A stretch of DNA of 58,846 bases, from positions 1 to 58,846 of IMG/VR virus record IMGVR_UViG_3300047547_000066. The stretch is one strand, 5' to 3'. Below, piece by piece: positions 4,207 through 33,056 of this stretch. This DNA is from a virus. Its lineage: Duplodnaviria > Caudoviricetes. A program made the translations under genes and the position numbers. How positions within the stretch are numbered: position 1 is the stretch's first letter; the number at the start of each line of letters is the position of its first letter. The notes beneath the pieces were generated by a model, which saw nothing but the letters and a program-made list of their open reading frames with translations, did no database searches and had not been told where the DNA came from.

Positions 4207-4234
4207 ATTATACACTGAGCAGATTATTTGTCAA
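4207..4234 (-). promoter_or_regulatory. sigma70-like early promoter
   Basis: TTGACA-16nt-TATAAT. Confidence 0.65.
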
Positions 4235-4244
4235 CTCTTTTTGA

Positions 4245-4354
4245 TTTGTGTTCCGGAGTTGCACCGGTCTTTCTTCATGCTGTTCCCAGACTATTGCGGA
4301 ATCGAACCGCCTTTCGACATCAACGGCACGTGCTACTGTTACACTAAACACAAA
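4245..4354 (-). ncRNA. tRNA-like RNA with expanded anticodon arm containing a second T-loop hairpin
   Basis: TTTGTGTT/AACACAAA acceptor-like stem, D arm TAGTGTAACAGTAGCAC, T arm CCGG-TGCAACT-CCGG, internal GCGG-TTCGATT-CCGC. Confidence 0.6.
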
Positions 4355-4357
4355 AGC

Positions 4358-4432
4358 TGGCGGGTGAGGTAGGATTCGAACCCACAACTTGTCCTTGGCA
4401 ATGATATGTGTTACCACTAGCACCACACCCGC
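4358..4432 (-). tRNA. Degenerate/pseudo tRNA-Gly (GCC)
   Basis: GCGGGTG/CACCCGC acceptor, D arm, TTGCCAA loop, GTGGG-TTCGAAT-CCTAC T arm; mismatched anticodon stem and 2 extra nt before the acceptor 3' strand. Confidence 0.6.
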
Positions 4433-4459: not shown

Positions 4460-4606
4460 CATAATTCAGTACACTCCCAGTTGGCTGTCAATTCAACTGT
4501 AGGTATTAGTGTGTTACCCCGAGCATTACCTTGCAAGACTATTCTCGTTCTGGCACACCTGTCGTGGAACCTGAAACCCCGTAAGACAGAAATGTACTGA
4601 ATTATG
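4460..4606 (-). ncRNA. Stem-bracketed RNA unit A
   Basis: Perfect 14-bp inverted repeat CATAATTCAGTACA/TGTACTGAATTATG enclosing several hairpins. Confidence 0.6.
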
Positions 4607-4608
4607 TC

Positions 4609-4737
4609 GACCCATTGTGGTCTAGGATTCGAACCTAGAATCTCTTGCGCTCTACCATTAAGCTACCGGCCTTTACAGACCGGATGGGATTCGAACCCAT
4701 ATCTCTTGCGTCCTCCCGCTTGAACGACTCACGGGTC
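4609..4737 (-). ncRNA. Anticodon-less double tRNA-elbow RNA (D-T-stemloop-D-T)
   Basis: Two D arms and two GGTTCGAATCC T arms, each D joined to T by GCAAGAGAT; central hairpin CCGGTC-TGTAAA-GGCCGG; ends GACCC/GGGTC pair. Confidence 0.75.
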
Positions 4738-4781
4738 ATCGGGTTAATTACTCCCGATTATAGCAACTGATGATCAGTCAA

Positions 4782-4886
4782 TTACCATATTGAAGAACAC
4801 TACGGTCAGCTGCTCCCGTAAGACCTATAGGCAATACTCCTGGGTGTTAACCCCGCAGGTATAGGATTTATTCTTCAATATGGTAA
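4782..4886 (-). ncRNA. Stem-bracketed RNA unit B
   Basis: Perfect 16-bp inverted repeat TTACCATATTGAAGAA/TTCTTCAATATGGTAA. Confidence 0.6.
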
Positions 4887-4971
4887 CTTGCCACTCCACC
4901 TTAGGAAGCCGACCCATTGATACTATCGCCGAGCCAGCGAGGGATCGAACCTCCTGGACTTATTTCATTAC

Positions 4972-5066
4972 CATATTTGAGAACACTCCCTTACCCCGAT
5001 GATGTTATCGTTGGACAGCAAGTATCTCTCCTGCTTTTCTATGATGGATGAGTGTTCTCAAATATG
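4972..5066 (-). ncRNA. Stem-bracketed RNA unit C
   Basis: Perfect 17-bp inverted repeat CATATTTGAGAACACTC/GAGTGTTCTCAAATATG. Confidence 0.6.
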
Positions 5067-5191: not shown

Positions 5192-5267
5192 CCATATTGA
5201 AGTACATTTGGCCGTCACATTGTTAGGGGCTAGTCCAAAGAATACCCGCAAATGTACTTCAATATGG
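5192..5267 (-). ncRNA. Stem-bracketed RNA unit D
   Basis: Perfect 19-bp inverted repeat CCATATTGAAGTACATTTG/CAAATGTACTTCAATATGG. Confidence 0.6.
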
Positions 5268-5332: not shown

Positions 5333-5478
5333 TCCGGTGAACTTGGACGACGATCCTCATGCTAGAAATCCGTAGGTAACGGCGCAACTCGTTACTCTAT
5401 TTTAACCAACCGCTGTTAGTGCGGTTCACCGAAGTGTGCTGCTGGCTCCATAGGGATATAGAGTAACAAGCATGGCGG
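5333..5478 (-). ncRNA. Putative pseudoknotted RNA at the 5' end of the RNA array
   Basis: Stems CTTGTTACTCTAT/ATAGAGTAACGAG and CATGCT/AGCATG plus a crossing CGGTGAAC/GTTCACCG pairing. Confidence 0.5.
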
Positions 5479-5488
5479 GACAAACTCT

Positions 5489-5515
5489 ATTATACACTAA
5501 AACTTACTATGTCAA
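5489..5515 (-). promoter_or_regulatory. sigma70-like promoter upstream of the RNA array
   Basis: TTGACA-15nt-TATAAT (short spacer). Confidence 0.55.
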
Positions 5516-5662
5516 CTCTTTTTCTATGGTTTGTGAGCTTTCCACTCACTCGCTGGTTTGCCAACACCGTTCAGTTGTCTAACAATTAAGCAGATTTTAC
5601 TGCACTCTTACGAGCAAAGGTTGCCACAGACTATTATACCACACAATCTACAAGTTTCTTTC

Positions 5663-23618: not shown

Positions 23619-23693
23619 TGCTCCCCGACTTGGATTTACACCAAGATCTACAGTTTATCAGGTCTGTTGCTCTACTAACTGAGCTATCGAGGA
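23619..23693 (-). pseudogene. Degenerate tRNA-Asn paralog with GAT-containing enlarged anticodon loop
   Basis: Acceptor and D arm nearly identical to the adjacent tRNA-Asn; altered anticodon arm, T loop GGTGTAAATCC, no CCA. Confidence 0.65.
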
Positions 23694-30095: not shown

Positions 30096-33056
30096 TTAAT
30101 CAAAATCTAATGTCACTTTTTCTTCTGCATCCCAACCTATAGATTCCAAAATACCATTCAATGGTTTAAGGAATGCTTTTTCAAATTGAGTTTTGTAATC
30201 AATGTATTGGTGTAGGTTAAACTCATCTGGTAGTTTGTTAACATATGCTATAACGTTCTCGTGGATTGTATTAGGCATCTTGAGTGCAACAAACTTTACC
30301 TTGTCGCCATCGTTAATGAGTTGGTATTTGTTATCTAGACCTAGACGTTTCACTGTATGGTTATACAACAATGATCCACGAACATGAATAGGACATCCTT
30401 TAACATAGATGGATGCACTATTACTGTATGTAGTCATACCATTTACACCACGGGGAAATGATACCTCTGTATAGTCACATGCAAAGAATGACTTCTTGAT
30501 GTCTTTCACTTTTCTTTGCAGCTCAACTTCTGTACTGGACAGACATAGCTTCAGTGAATCCTTTAGAAAGTCTTTAACAACAGATGGAGTTGAAGATCGA
30601 ACAATCTCAATACCCATTACTTTCATTTTGGGTTCTTCATATCGTACACCTTCAGTATACAAAATATCAAATGCATAGCGTTTCTTTGCAACGAAAATAA
30701 TGGATGGACCAATACACTCGAGCTTAAAGAATATTTTGCATTTGTCTACACCTAGCGTATTAGCAAACGTTGTTAGCTTCTTATTCAGTGGAGGTGATAG
30801 AACATCAACTACAAACTTTTCTAGTTTATTAACAATCTGATGTTGATCTAGTCCTTTACATTGAGTATCAACAAATGATTGTACTGTAAAATATTGTGAG
30901 TTGTGTACTAGGATATCGTTAGCAAAGAAGTTATGGTTATCATCAACTTCAATGTCATATACATCAATCTCCTGGATACCAAGGTCAACAATTGTATAAG
31001 TTGATGTTCTAGGTATCAACTGCATATCAATGCTTATAACAACATCATCATTCAACATGTTAGCTGGACTAGCTGACAAGTATTCTGTTCCACGCTTAAC
31101 AATCACTGAATGATCTTCGGTGACAATAACAGATTTTCCACCTACAGTAATTTCATACATTCGCTTAGTCACGCGATGTTTCATTACATATTTGATTTGC
31201 TTCTGTTCAATACGTTCAGTCGTTGTATTGAATGATTTTGTTAGTATATTATCAACTGGCTTTACAAAGTTTCGAGTATTGACATCTTCATGAACACAAT
31301 CTGTAGTTATTGAGTCATACAGATCTGAGATTCTCATAAGTTGATCATTAACATACACTAATGTGTCGCCTACAACACTATCAGTATCCATATAGATAAC
31401 AGAATCACCTGTGCTTACCTTACTAAGCATTACATTCATTATGTCTGCTGTACGCTTAATGAACACCTGTCCAGTAGAAGTAATTGCTTCTGCCAATCTA
31501 AAGTCATAATATTTGAAGTGGCTAAGACCAGTAACACCAAAGAAAGAGTTTGCTGCTGTCTTATATGCTTGCTGAGCAATGTCCAAAGCACGGTACTGAT
31601 CTTCCGGTGCATGTAGACGCTTTAATTCAAGCATCTTGTTCTTTGTTTCCTTACGTAAATTGAACATGCGTTCAACTAAGATTGGAATAAACCCTTTGAT
31701 ATCAGTCCGTGTCAACAATCCATTTGCTGACAGAATATGCCCCTCTGGTACATGACCAATGTGTTTACCGTCCAGTATATCCTGGATGTTGAAATCTAAC
31801 ATATCAACAACACACTCTGGGGATATGTTATTTTGCATCATGATGCTAGGATACAGAGACGTTGCATCAATACTCACTGTCCACCCATACTTTCCAGGTA
31901 CTGGATCATGAACGTAAGCACCAACAATCTTATGCTTTTCATTACGTTCTTTATCCAATTCCTCAACAATGTCATTGTCAAGAAAGTAGTTATAGATGAT
32001 GCTTTCCCATAGACGCATTGCCGACAATACATCATCAAATTGACACTTAGCAATGAACCCTAATTGCATTGCTAACCGTACGTGCAACATCTTCAACTCC
32101 AATTTATGGAGTAGCATTGTATCAATTGCATTGTAAAAAACAAAAGTTTCCCAATGGTTCGTATAACTATCTTTGAATGAATCACCTGGTAGTTCAACCT
32201 TACGCTCACCTAGTTCATAATCAGCAATGAAATCTAGCTTGAATGATTCTTTGCTACCAGGGTTGAACTTTTTATAGATGTCCAGTGAGTCAAGGTGAGT
32301 GATCCCCAGAATATCATATGTGTGCTTTACATCATCTTCCATCTGTATGGTACGAGGCTTAACAACTCGCCAAGGTGATAGGAATTTGACTGCGGCTTCA
32401 CCTAACACATTTTTTATACGATTAACAATGTATGGGATATCGAATGTTTCACTGTTCCAGCCACTGATAATATCAATTCGCTCAGTTGCAAAGAACATAA
32501 GGAAATCTTTGAGCATTAACTTTTCAGTCTCAAATACTCGAACTTCAACATTAGGAATGTCGGTATAGATCTTGTTATCTTTTGATATAGGTTTTTGTGA
32601 CCAAACAACCATACGTTTGGTGTTGTGTTCCATCATTGTAATCAATAGGATTTCTTCCAATGCATGATCGGGAGATGGAAACCCTGTACTATTCTCACCT
32701 ACTCGAGTCTCAATATCAAAGAACCATATTTTTGTAATATAGTAGTCCCAATCAATATCACCTTTGAATGTATTGCCTGTAAATTGTCTTGTGATGTCTT
32801 TACAACCATAGATATCAAACCCATGAAGATCTTTGTGATCTTCAACGAAAGTCTTCATGGATTCAATAGAGTCAAACTCACGCTTCTTTACAGGAACATT
32901 GGATTTAAAGACATGATACTTTGCATCTTGTTCTTGAGATTTGACAAACAGATGTGGTCTATATGGAATTTTTTCTTGTACAGGAATTCCTTTATCGTAT
33001 CCACGATAAAGTACATAGTTTCCTCGAGTCTCAATGTTTGTATAGAATTTGCTCAT
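30096..33056 (-). CDS. gp43: Family B DNA polymerase gp43, intein-containing
   Basis: Exo FFDIET, GWNSETFDIPY, DATSLYPS, KTAANSFFG, YMDTD/S and KKRYA motifs. Confidence 0.97.
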   Translation of the reverse strand: MSKFYTNIETRGNYVLYRGYDKGIPVQEKIPYRPHLFVKSQEQDAKYHVFKSNVPVKKREFDSIESMKTFVEDHKDLHGFDIYGCKDITRQFTGNTFKGDIDWDYYITKIWFFDIETRVGENSTGFPSPDHALEEILLITMMEHNTKRMVVWSQKPISKDNKIYTDIPNVEVRVFETEKLMLKDFLMFFATERIDIISGWNSETFDIPYIVNRIKNVLGEAAVKFLSPWRVVKPRTIQMEDDVKHTYDILGITHLDSLDIYKKFNPGSKESFKLDFIADYELGERKVELPGDSFKDSYTNHWETFVFYNAIDTMLLHKLELKMLHVRLAMQLGFIAKCQFDDVLSAMRLWESIIYNYFLDNDIVEELDKERNEKHKIVGAYVHDPVPGKYGWTVSIDATSLYPSIMMQNNISPECVVDMLDFNIQDILDGKHIGHVPEGHILSANGLLTRTDIKGFIPILVERMFNLRKETKNKMLELKRLHAPEDQYRALDIAQQAYKTAANSFFGVTGLSHFKYYDFRLAEAITSTGQVFIKRTADIMNVMLSKVSTGDSVIYMDTDSVVGDTLVYVNDQLMRISDLYDSITTDCVHEDVNTRNFVKPVDNILTKSFNTTTERIEQKQIKYVMKHRVTKRMYEITVGGKSVIVTEDHSVIVKRGTEYLSASPANMLNDDVVISIDMQLIPRTSTYTIVDLGIQEIDVYDIEVDDNHNFFANDILVHNSQYFTVQSFVDTQCKGLDQHQIVNKLEKFVVDVLSPPLNKKLTTFANTLGVDKCKIFFKLECIGPSIIFVAKKRYAFDILYTEGVRYEEPKMKVMGIEIVRSSTPSVVKDFLKDSLKLCLSSTEVELQRKVKDIKKSFFACDYTEVSFPRGVNGMTTYSNSASIYVKGCPIHVRGSLLYNHTVKRLGLDNKYQLINDGDKVKFVALKMPNTIHENVIAYVNKLPDEFNLHQYIDYKTQFEKAFLKPLNGILESIGWDAEEKVTLDFD
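30900..31379 (-). mobile_element. Mini-intein (160 aa, no homing endonuclease) in the gp43 motif C
   Basis: Interrupts YMDTD|S; starts SVVGDT, block B VTEDHS, ends VYDIEV...FFANDILVHN, +1 Ser. Confidence 0.92.

Follow-up and report, generated by a model that had tools for sequence, protein, structure and literature searches.

A stretch of DNA in which D and T arms of tRNA follow one another without any anticodon arm raises the question of whether it is a gene in its own right and, if so, of what its RNA could do. Such a stretch lies at positions 4609-4737, on the minus strand, of a viral record of 58,846 bases from IMG/VR. The whole record was analysed and is called here the window; the element itself is referred to as the window copy or window twin. 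A sequence-only reading of this DNA had proposed an RNA in which two tRNA elbows, both deprived of their anticodon arm, are arranged around a hairpin in the order D-T-hairpin-D-T, one elbow being nested in the other.

The locus and the anatomy of the window copy

Among the proteins encoded by the record, which is estimated to be 33% complete, are an intein-containing family-B DNA polymerase, a helicase of UvsW type and a ribonucleotide reductase. Because the helicase has its closest match in the phage collection in a protein of Pelagibacter phage HTVC008M, with 41% identity, the source is judged to be a distant T4-like phage. Genes in the window are directed along the minus strand. From about 5480 to 4270 there is no long ORF, and this non-coding stretch of about 1.2 kb contains four long hairpins with perfect stems of 14-19 bp, at least three of them with a common stem word, as well as five T-loop-type motifs identified in the repeat and motif listing. 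The twin is located between the third and the fourth long hairpin. Degenerate tRNA-like pieces are also present in the locus. Compared by blastn with 50,697 phage records, the 1.9-kb locus gave no match, and PHROG and Pfam scans of the ORFs adjoining the twin returned only unknown PHROGs and a metallophosphoesterase, with no RNA-related partner. The 16 loci reached via this neighbouring metallophosphoesterase carry no twin, the model matches there being composed of the tail of one tRNA and the head of the next. The promoter and terminator scan assigned neither signal to the locus and found no terminator after the twin; its sole 12/12 promoter match is downstream of the locus. A promoter-like site can be read at about 5488-5516, which the scan did not report because of its 15-nt spacer.

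The minus-strand sequence and the D-T-hairpin-D-T order proposed earlier are confirmed. From 5′ to 3′, the RNA would consist of the outer 5′ strand, D1, a 9-nt linker, T1, the hairpin, a two-base spacer, D2, the same linker, T2 and the outer 3′ strand (Table 1). Counting five arms and an outer stem of 5 + 3 pairs with a 3-nt bulge, 32 of 32 pairs form, and 33 of 33 with an extra pair in T2. The inner hairpin is present as described, except that it comprises seven pairs and a 4-nt loop instead of six pairs. The earlier observation that one and the same 9-nt linker occupies both anticodon-arm places also holds, and both linkers lie in a 17-nt direct repeat (family D6 of the repeat finder). T1 and T2 have stems that differ in sequence and nevertheless both pair perfectly. 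D1 is the least canonical arm, and the two-base spacer that precedes it in the window departs from the family norm. The outer stem, with its 8-9 pairs and 3-nt bulge, is not a standard 7-bp acceptor.

Table 1. Elements of the twin and of its immediate surroundings in the window
Feature	Position	Strand	Evidence or remark
Whole twin tRNA-like RNA gene, 129 nt	4609..4737	-	Family model 129.2 bits, E 2e-31; L027-only model 44.1 bits; 13 homologues
Outer stem 5′ strand, in acceptor-stem place	4730..4737	-	Pairs with 4609-4613 and 4617-4619; all 8 pairs form
D1 arm, 4-bp stem, 8-nt loop with two adjacent G	4710..4725	-	100% of cells paired; 2/4 pairs change on both sides
Linker 1, 9 nt, purine-rich, in anticodon-arm place	4701..4709	-	Identical to linker 2; last base pairs with D2-loop position 15
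T1 arm, 5-bp stem, canonical 7-nt T loop	4684..4700	-	100% paired; 3/5 pairs change on both sides
Inner acceptor-like hairpin, 7 pairs, 4-nt loop	4666..4683	-	6/6 counted pairs change on both sides
Two-base spacer (tRNA positions 8-9) and D2 arm (4-bp stem, 7-nt loop)	4649..4665	-	D2 stem: 3/4 pairs change on both sides
Linker 2, 9 nt, same as linker 1	4640..4648	-	Sequence identity
T2 arm, 6 pairs, canonical 7-nt T loop in the window	4621..4639	-	4/6 pairs change on both sides
Outer stem 3′ strand, 3-nt bulge	4609..4620	-	Followed by one base, then by the next long hairpin
Conserved 5′ leader, two small hairpins (about 4764-4784, 7-nt loop; 4738-4758, 9-nt loop)	4738..4784	-	Nearly identical in L348
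Long upstream hairpin, 16-bp perfect terminal stem common to three others in the locus	4782..4886	-	Inverted repeat I4
Long downstream hairpin, 14-bp perfect terminal stem	4460..4606	-	Inverted repeat I5; homologous position in relatives

Standard tools recognize this structure only in part. ARAGORN does not call the twin in the window. The thermodynamic fold is weakly better than that of shuffled sequences (z -2.7, with 2 of 200 shuffles as good), and the minimum-energy fold of the window copy does not reproduce the arms. The sequence-only reading had suggested a search with tRNA and YrlA models: the Rfam tRNA model (RF00005) matches the second half at 30.4 bits, above its cut-off of 29, with the anticodon arm deleted in the alignment, whereas the YrlA score remains below threshold, as discussed further on. 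Throughout the family, an anticodon arm with a 7-nt loop is absent from both units, and linkers of 9-10 nt are found instead. A covariance model built solely from an unrelated phage twin, L027, finds the window copy over its full length (E 7e-9), and the family model finds it as the only copy in the window. Pairing between the two linkers was considered for the window clade and rejected, the longest runs being of 1-4 pairs, a length reached in 413-2000 of 2000 shuffles.

A conserved family and its nested tRNA-like cores

Using the two outer strands as a search pattern, we found homologues in 13 further viral contigs. They are 63-80% identical to the window copy, and the 14 members, which represent 13 distinct sequences, are 63-100% identical to each other. 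A model based on the window copy aligns all 14 over their full length, with scores of 58-170 bits. Alignments made with covariance models were used, since MAFFT misplaces D2 when applied to unrelated twins. In the family alignment, 97.1% of 453 cells are standard pairs and 19 of the 35 pairs change on both sides; as a control, sliding the partners by 1-3 columns makes pairing fall to 34-56%. None of 500 shuffles reached any of five covariation measures; this count overstates independence, as the members are related to one another and were aligned by fitting them to the model structure. No variation is seen in the outer stem of the 13 distinct homologues (13 of 13), which is no evidence of its conservation since the search pattern demanded these very strands.

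In the comparison with the closest relative, L348, nine pairs are changed on both sides and none is broken, while leader, linkers and loops are nearly unchanged. Across the family, the two-base spacer before D2 is identical in all 14 members, whereas the loop of the inner hairpin varies in sequence and length and a G-U pair in the same hairpin shifts its position from one member to another. The pair closing the T2 loop is kept only in the window copy and L348 (2 of 13 distinct sequences). In the other 11, T2 has five pairs and a 9-nt loop, and the outer elbow may be non-standard in these members for that reason. The sequence-only reading had taken the two different and yet perfectly paired T stems as a sign of selection on structure, and had named a decaying tandem of ordinary tRNAs, devoid of compensatory changes, as the outcome that would contradict it. 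In the homologues every arm is kept via compensatory changes, which favours a real RNA. As far as comparison of sequences can tell, the twin is shown to be a real and conserved RNA gene of large phages, selected for its structure.

How the arms are associated is revealed by a tertiary pair. In a tRNA, base 15 in the D loop is paired with base 48, where the variable loop ends. In the twin, the corresponding pair between D2 position 15 and the final base of linker 1 is possible in each of the 13 distinct sequences (C-G in eight, U-A in four and A-U in one), with five double changes. The alternative within the same unit, between D1 position 15 and linker 1, gives a pair in only 4 of 13, and the combination of D1 with linker 2 is an invariant A-U, uninformative either way. 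The covarying pair implies that T1, the inner hairpin and D2 fold together, and this comparison shows them to form a circularly permuted tRNA core, as predicted, in which the end of linker 1 takes the place of a variable loop. The second, outer core is given by connectivity: it consists of D1, T2 and the outer stem. The twin is thereby shown to be a tRNA-like frame that carries a permuted tRNA-like core where its anticodon arm would be, neither unit retaining an anticodon arm, and the two short purine-rich linkers are shown to cross-connect the cores. The earlier proposal of a YrlA-like permuted module nested in a second elbow is borne out by this arrangement.

In many ordinary tRNAs the 9-nt linker is found as the 3′ anticodon-stem strand and the variable loop that follows it, and for this reason the units of the twin appear clearly to descend from tRNA genes. 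Each of them looks like a tRNA gene from whose anticodon arm the loop and the 5′ strand have been lost. A tandem of two units of this kind, with similar acceptor stems, could have made the swapped pairing possible, and the stems would then have changed in concert.

tRNA islands, related designs and known tRNA mimics

Each of the 13 related loci is a tRNA island whose 2-26 tRNAs share the strand of the twin; tmRNA genes occur in 2-3 of these islands, away from the twin (L356, L362 and L348 are named). A conserved order surrounds the gene: a long hairpin with the common stem word and then two small hairpins come before the twin, and another long hairpin comes after it, separated by one base. The stem word of the upstream hairpin also flanks the twin in relatives, and the loop of the second leader hairpin has a motif that is met again upstream of the twin throughout the clade. 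Long hairpins are found in 11 of 14 loci, from none to six per locus, and vary in number and content. Among 21 long hairpins from six loci, five overlap the last four bases of a tRNA called by ARAGORN. After the twin, a hairpin starts 1 nt beyond the last pair in five of six loci, that is, in the same register as after the N73-CCA end of a tRNA. On the basis of this shared register, the twin is considered to occupy a tRNA slot, its outer stem standing in the place of an acceptor stem. Of the 14 members, three have N-CCA as the four bases that follow it and seven have N-C-U-A; the window has neither. The earlier statement that there is no CCA end thus applies to the window copy and fails for the three members with N-CCA.

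Is this design restricted to one clade? A strict descriptor, which asked for a T arm with a hairpin immediately next to it, two bases, a D arm, a short linker, a second T arm and paired ends, was run over 188 sources (1.77 Mb). It retrieved L005, L007, L027 and L050, together with two false matches whose 22-nt linkers are ordinary anticodon arms; reversed or complemented controls gave no match. A further nested twin, L317, was recognized by reading and not via the descriptor. We define a nested twin by the order D-linker-T-hairpin-D-linker-T, paired ends and two linkers too short for an anticodon arm. This definition holds for the window copy, its 13 homologues, L005, L007, L027 and L050, and by reading for L317. 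The five additional twins have no sequence in common with the window copy beyond tRNA-universal motifs; the family model nonetheless finds L050, L007, L005, L027 and L317 at 38-50 bits. In L005, L007 and L027 the swapped pairing is perfect and is the sole possibility, the own acceptor of each unit forming only 1-3 of 7 pairs. For the L027 twin, Rfam proposes a tRNA with a large insertion, at 42.5 bits. A further pattern search revealed no additional twin among the 80 listed of 118 stretches, and among the stretches listed by a metagenome scan for a linker plus T-loop pattern, only ordinary tRNAs were recognized by reading.

Linkers behave differently in these twins. L027, L005 and L007 have a run of five pairs at the same place in both linkers, which is only suggestive of linker-linker pairing, since shuffles reach it in 121-1050 of 2000 cases. 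In L050 and L317 the linkers are able to form 7-9 pairs with each other. A fixed geometry for the bivalent elbow mimic proposed earlier is doubtful in this light, because the connection varies from unpaired linkers of 9-10 nt to 5-9 linker-linker pairs.

Simpler relatives of the design are frequent. Single mini-tRNAs without anticodon arm and with their own acceptor stem of 6-7 bp were found in 21 of 35 phage loci (18 distinct), some of them followed by CCA. Like the twin, they carry a linker, here of 8-14 nt, in the anticodon-arm place between intact D and T arms; unlike it, they are single units with their own acceptor, whereas the twin combines two units with swapped acceptor strands. We found no publication on anticodon-arm-less mini-tRNAs of phage contigs. 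Single permuted modules (L008:696-799, L098/L183 and L089) and tRNA-like genes with 23-60 nt in the place of the anticodon loop (L027:11635-11723, L050:7738-7859 and L007:11715-11827) were also observed.

The permuted T arm, loop-closed acceptor-like stem and D arm echo the tRNA-like module of YrlA Y RNAs; this module is present in the twin and all its three helices covary. According to PMC4201824, tRNA modifications are present on YrlA tRNA-like domains, and the YrlA of M. smegmatis, whose acceptor-like stem has 7 bp, is cleaved by RNase P and provided with CCA. The same paper reports YrlA genes from phages and cautions that a T arm with a D arm after it can produce false YrlA matches. The middle of the window twin (T1, hairpin and D2) matches the Rfam YrlA model RF02553 at 34.2 bits (E 6e-5), for a gathering cut-off of 69. 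Only model positions 28-81 of 114 align, which correspond to the tRNA-like part and leave the Ro60-binding flanks unaligned. Among relatives, two of four loci gave a match in one scan (41.8 and 37.0 bits) and two of eight in another (40.6 and 32.9 bits), none reaching 69. In the window copy, read by eye, the Ro60-binding motif named in PMC4201824 is absent outside the T loops. A Ro60/TROVE or RtcB gene had been suggested as a partner to look for. A YrlA gene would be expected to lie within about 4 kb of a Ro60 (TROVE) gene. No TROVE gene was found in the 58.8-kb window, in the four contigs that carry other twins, of which two are 92-100% complete, or in the 13 clade contigs, which are all fragments, and no RtcB gene was found in the window. 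With scores below the cut-off, unaligned flanks and no TROVE gene in these 18 contigs, YrlA membership was rejected. The two RNAs nevertheless resemble each other in their permuted module with canonical T and D loops, their non-decoding nature, their size of about 100-130 nt and their occurrence in phages, for YrlA as stated in PMC4201824. They differ in that the module of the twin is closed by a second tRNA-like frame (D1, T2 and the acceptor-like stem) and not by a Ro60-binding stem, and in that the twin is found in tRNA islands and not beside rsr.

With ordinary tRNAs the twin shares a D arm, a T arm, the two-base spacer, the 15:48 pair and an acceptor-type closing stem, besides its position as a gene of tRNA clusters with the same flanking-hairpin register. 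It is distinguished from tRNAs and tandem tRNAs by the lack of anticodon arms, the bulged outer stem and the absence of an ARAGORN call, and from tandem tRNAs by the exchange of acceptor strands between units, one acceptor being loop-closed and the other formed from the ends. The tRNA-like domain of tmRNA is likewise a tRNA mimic without anticodon, and in permuted, two-piece tmRNA genes the 3′ acceptor strand precedes the 5′ strand, as here. In contrast to tmRNA, the twin has no coding part, no pseudoknots and no conserved G3:U70 at a fixed position, and neither a tmRNA call nor an Rfam tmRNA match was obtained at the twin. The T4 species 1 and 2 RNAs (rnaC and rnaD) are comparable as stable small RNAs at the end of a T4-type tRNA cluster, rnaC ending in a T arm, but they do not have the twin layout. 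Their assignment to the same family was rejected, since covariance model R1 matches only ordinary tRNAs in the T4 tRNA region.

Possible action of the twin and its significance

What could such an RNA do for the phage? We favour, with about an even chance of being right, a trans-acting, stable, non-decoding double tRNA mimic that would be matured together with the tRNAs. As the gene sits in a tRNA slot of a tRNA island, it is probably transcribed together with the island tRNAs. RNase P would then cut the 5′ end and the 3′ end would be trimmed, with CCA present in some relatives. A very stable RNA of about 130 nt would accumulate, offering two tRNA elbows and one acceptor-like end without any decoding capacity. 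Proteins that read the tRNA body could recognize it, so that it would act in trans during infection as a non-cleavable mimic. This view of its maturation and recognition draws on PMC4201824, where tRNA-like domains of YrlA are described as modified and the one of M. smegmatis as cut by RNase P and tailed with CCA. Recognition of the outer stem by RNase P and the CCA enzyme is uncertain, because this stem has 8-9 pairs and a 3-nt bulge in place of a 7-bp acceptor. The target would most likely be a host enzyme reading the tRNA body, and the twin could serve as a decoy or tether for a tRNA-directed enzyme of the host, whether a defence nuclease, a processing enzyme or a modification enzyme; the decoy function as such, like the earlier idea that the RNA could titrate elbow-binding proteins, is pure conjecture. 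A bolder proposal, tentative and on balance doubtful, is that the twins represent a hitherto undescribed ‘tRNA-within-a-tRNA’ class in large phages, next to the single mini-tRNAs and single permuted modules. Host tRNA machinery would mature them into stable, anticodon-free molecules with two elbows and an acceptor end, to be used for counter-defence or hijacking, either as a non-cleavable decoy against tRNA-directed immunity or as a charged adaptor outside decoding.

Other readings have to be weighed against the double mimic. The twin and its hairpins could punctuate the island transcript for RNase P or 3′-end processing, or block exonucleases, in cis and with no function in trans. The position of the twin between conserved long hairpins, of a kind that is also found after ordinary tRNAs and overlapping the 3′ ends of these, is consistent with such a module, as are the conserved leader hairpins and the 1.2-kb stretch without long ORF. 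Punctuation, however, needs only an acceptor/T minihelix, whereas here compensatory changes have preserved two complete cores along with both D arms and a tertiary pair, and the nested design also exists in phages without these hairpins (L005, L027 and L050); we regard this reading as unlikely. If twin, leader and long hairpins folded or assembled as one, the twin could instead be a domain of a larger ornate or multimeric RNA. The conserved order and spacing of hairpins and twin, the non-coding 1.2 kb or so and several loops in which 6-nt palindromes can be read would fit this idea, which we find very improbable given that the long hairpins vary from none to six per locus, occur in 11 of 14 loci and are absent from the other twins. 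Descent from tRNA, seen in the linker, and the degenerate tRNA-like pieces of the locus could also suggest a decaying tandem of tRNAs, or fragments left by recombination, without function. Double changes at 19 of 35 pairs and 97% pairing over 13 distinct sequences, nine double changes with no broken pair against L348, and a swapped acceptor pairing that is the sole option in L005, L007 and L027 (own acceptors 1-3 of 7) make this extremely improbable, and by these comparisons the pseudogene reading is refuted.

Two further alternatives would give the twin a defined partner. As a chargeable adaptor, it would present an outer stem with N73-CCA to an anticodon-blind synthetase and, once aminoacylated, deliver its amino acid in a tmRNA-like manner or through a transferase. 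The tRNA-slot register and the N-CCA encoded in 3 of 14 members speak in its favour, together with the mini-tRNAs with their own acceptor stems in 21 of 35 loci, some with CCA, and the tmRNA genes of related islands; against it stand the bulged outer stem of 8-9 pairs, 11 of 14 members without encoded CCA, the absence of an evident identity element, the shifting position of the G-U pair in the inner hairpin and the fact that no partner enzyme was found. On this evidence, charging seems improbable. A Y RNA of YrlA type, whose closing stem would bind the ring of a host or phage Ro60 (Rsr) and tether it to a nuclease, is quite improbable for the reasons already given: scores below 69, alignment restricted to positions 28-81, no motif seen by eye and no TROVE gene in 18 contigs, to which the authors' warning about T-then-D arms in PMC4201824 adds weight. 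The match of the middle part to the tRNA-like portion of the model, a size and a bulged closing stem reminiscent of Y RNAs, and the phage YrlA genes reported in that paper would be its arguments.

Mimicry of tRNA by non-coding RNA is known from YrlA, tmRNA and viral tRNA-like ends. What is new here, as far as the literature searched goes, is a conserved gene that nests a permuted tRNA core in another one, with both anticodons removed. No nested or twin anticodon-less tRNA-like RNA is described in the literature searched, whose coverage stopped short of the supplementary lists of PMC4201824 and PMC10690425 (10,006 candidate viral RNAs). Judging from its predicted fold, such a twin can look like a tRNA to enzymes and cannot read codons. 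Phage tRNA islands hold more than decoding tRNAs, and gene finders miss their anticodon-less tRNA-like genes, be they twins, single mini-tRNAs or single permuted modules. The family alignment and its covariance model make the idea of maturation and binding testable. If it is true that these RNAs are matured and bind tRNA-recognizing enzymes, they would provide a handle on the way phages counter tRNA-directed defence or take over tRNA processing.

Reduced, permuted and interrupted tRNA forms in phage contigs

Single mini-tRNAs are found in 21 of the 35 loci, 18 of them being distinct (L004, L006, L008, L009, L011, L015, L018, L019, L021-L025, L028, L030, L031, L033 and L034 among the viral loci concerned). 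In these genes both the D arm and the T arm are intact and each unit has an acceptor stem of its own (6-7 bp), but the anticodon arm is replaced by a linker of 8-14 nt; some are followed by CCA. In three contigs, L019 (about 5400-5530), L025 and L034, a small ORF immediately precedes the mini-tRNA and, as read from the frame, would end in a cysteine-rich peptide.

Permuted modules and tRNA-like genes with a replaced anticodon loop are also present (table). The modules of L008, L098/L183 and L089 are similar to YrlA, but they are single and located in phage contigs. The three loop-replaced genes retain acceptor, D, anticodon-stem and T helices, with 23-60 nt in place of the anticodon loop; the insert of the L050 gene includes a further T-loop hairpin.

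Some phage tRNA islands of the clade sharing twin homologues also contain tmRNA genes (L356:4076-4467, L362:2496-2854 and L348:8511-8657). The first two were called as permuted by ARAGORN, and in Rfam that of L362 matches the permuted model together with the betaproteobacterial one. The L348 gene reaches 43.8 bits on the permuted Rfam model, below the cut-off of 47. A cobalamin riboswitch (94 bits) is present in another phage contig of the clade (L366:2163-2280).

tRNA-like pieces and expression signals in the window

Among the tRNA-like pieces of the window, ARAGORN gave no call for the degenerate gene and missed the fifth tRNA. R3, the covariance model of the twin family, matches weakly over 4289-4422 of the minus strand (18.3 bits). 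At the start of the non-coding stretch, a by-eye reading gave a second pair of consensus hexamers with a 15-nt spacer (about 5488-5516), which is not among the sites reported by the promoter scan.

Features of the window and of compared viral loci
Feature	Location	Strand	Remarks
Sigma-70 consensus promoter	window 4207-4234	-	12/12 match; ahead of 67-aa ORF
Odd tRNA-like piece	window 4270-4360	-	next after degenerate gene; T arm and D-like arm without the two G
Degenerate tRNA-like gene	window 4361-4430	-	Rfam 29.7 bits; anticodon-stem mismatches
Long hairpin	window 4460-4606	-	perfect terminal stem (14-19 bp over the set of four)
Two small conserved hairpins	window 4738-4784	-	immediately 5' of twin
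Long hairpin	window 4782-4886	-	as above
Element with 8-pair T-loop hairpin	window 4887-4971	-	next long hairpin follows in tRNA-slot register
Long hairpin	window 4972-5066	-	as above
Long hairpin	window 5192-5267	-	as above
Fifth tRNA of window	window 23621-23693	-	Rfam 50.4 bits
Family-B DNA polymerase gene	window 30096-33056	-	intein splicing domain
Permuted module (T arm, 7-9-bp hairpin, D arm)	L008:696-799		stand-alone
Permuted module, same layout	L098:4747-4859		stand-alone; L183 the same
Permuted module, same layout	L089:936-1048		stand-alone
tRNA-like gene	L050:7738-7859		anticodon loop replaced
tRNA-like gene	L027:11635-11723		anticodon loop replaced
tRNA-like gene	L007:11715-11827		anticodon loop replaced

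Hairpins around the twin

Of the two leader hairpins, the first has 7 bp in its stem and 7 nt in its loop, the second 6 bp and 9 nt. A motif in the loop of the second occurs again upstream of twins of the clade, and downstream of the unrelated L007 twin. The twin body, devoid of two anticodon arms, adjoins two hairpins of anticodon-arm size.

The four long hairpins enclose 38-119 nt of unrelated sequence, and at least three of them have a stem word in common. The same long-hairpin family fills the spacers of related tRNA islands in 11 of the 14 loci, where the N73-CCA of the preceding tRNA often constitutes the first four bases of the hairpin. In their arrangement the long hairpins are reminiscent of processing stems or of recombination sites of the cassette type.
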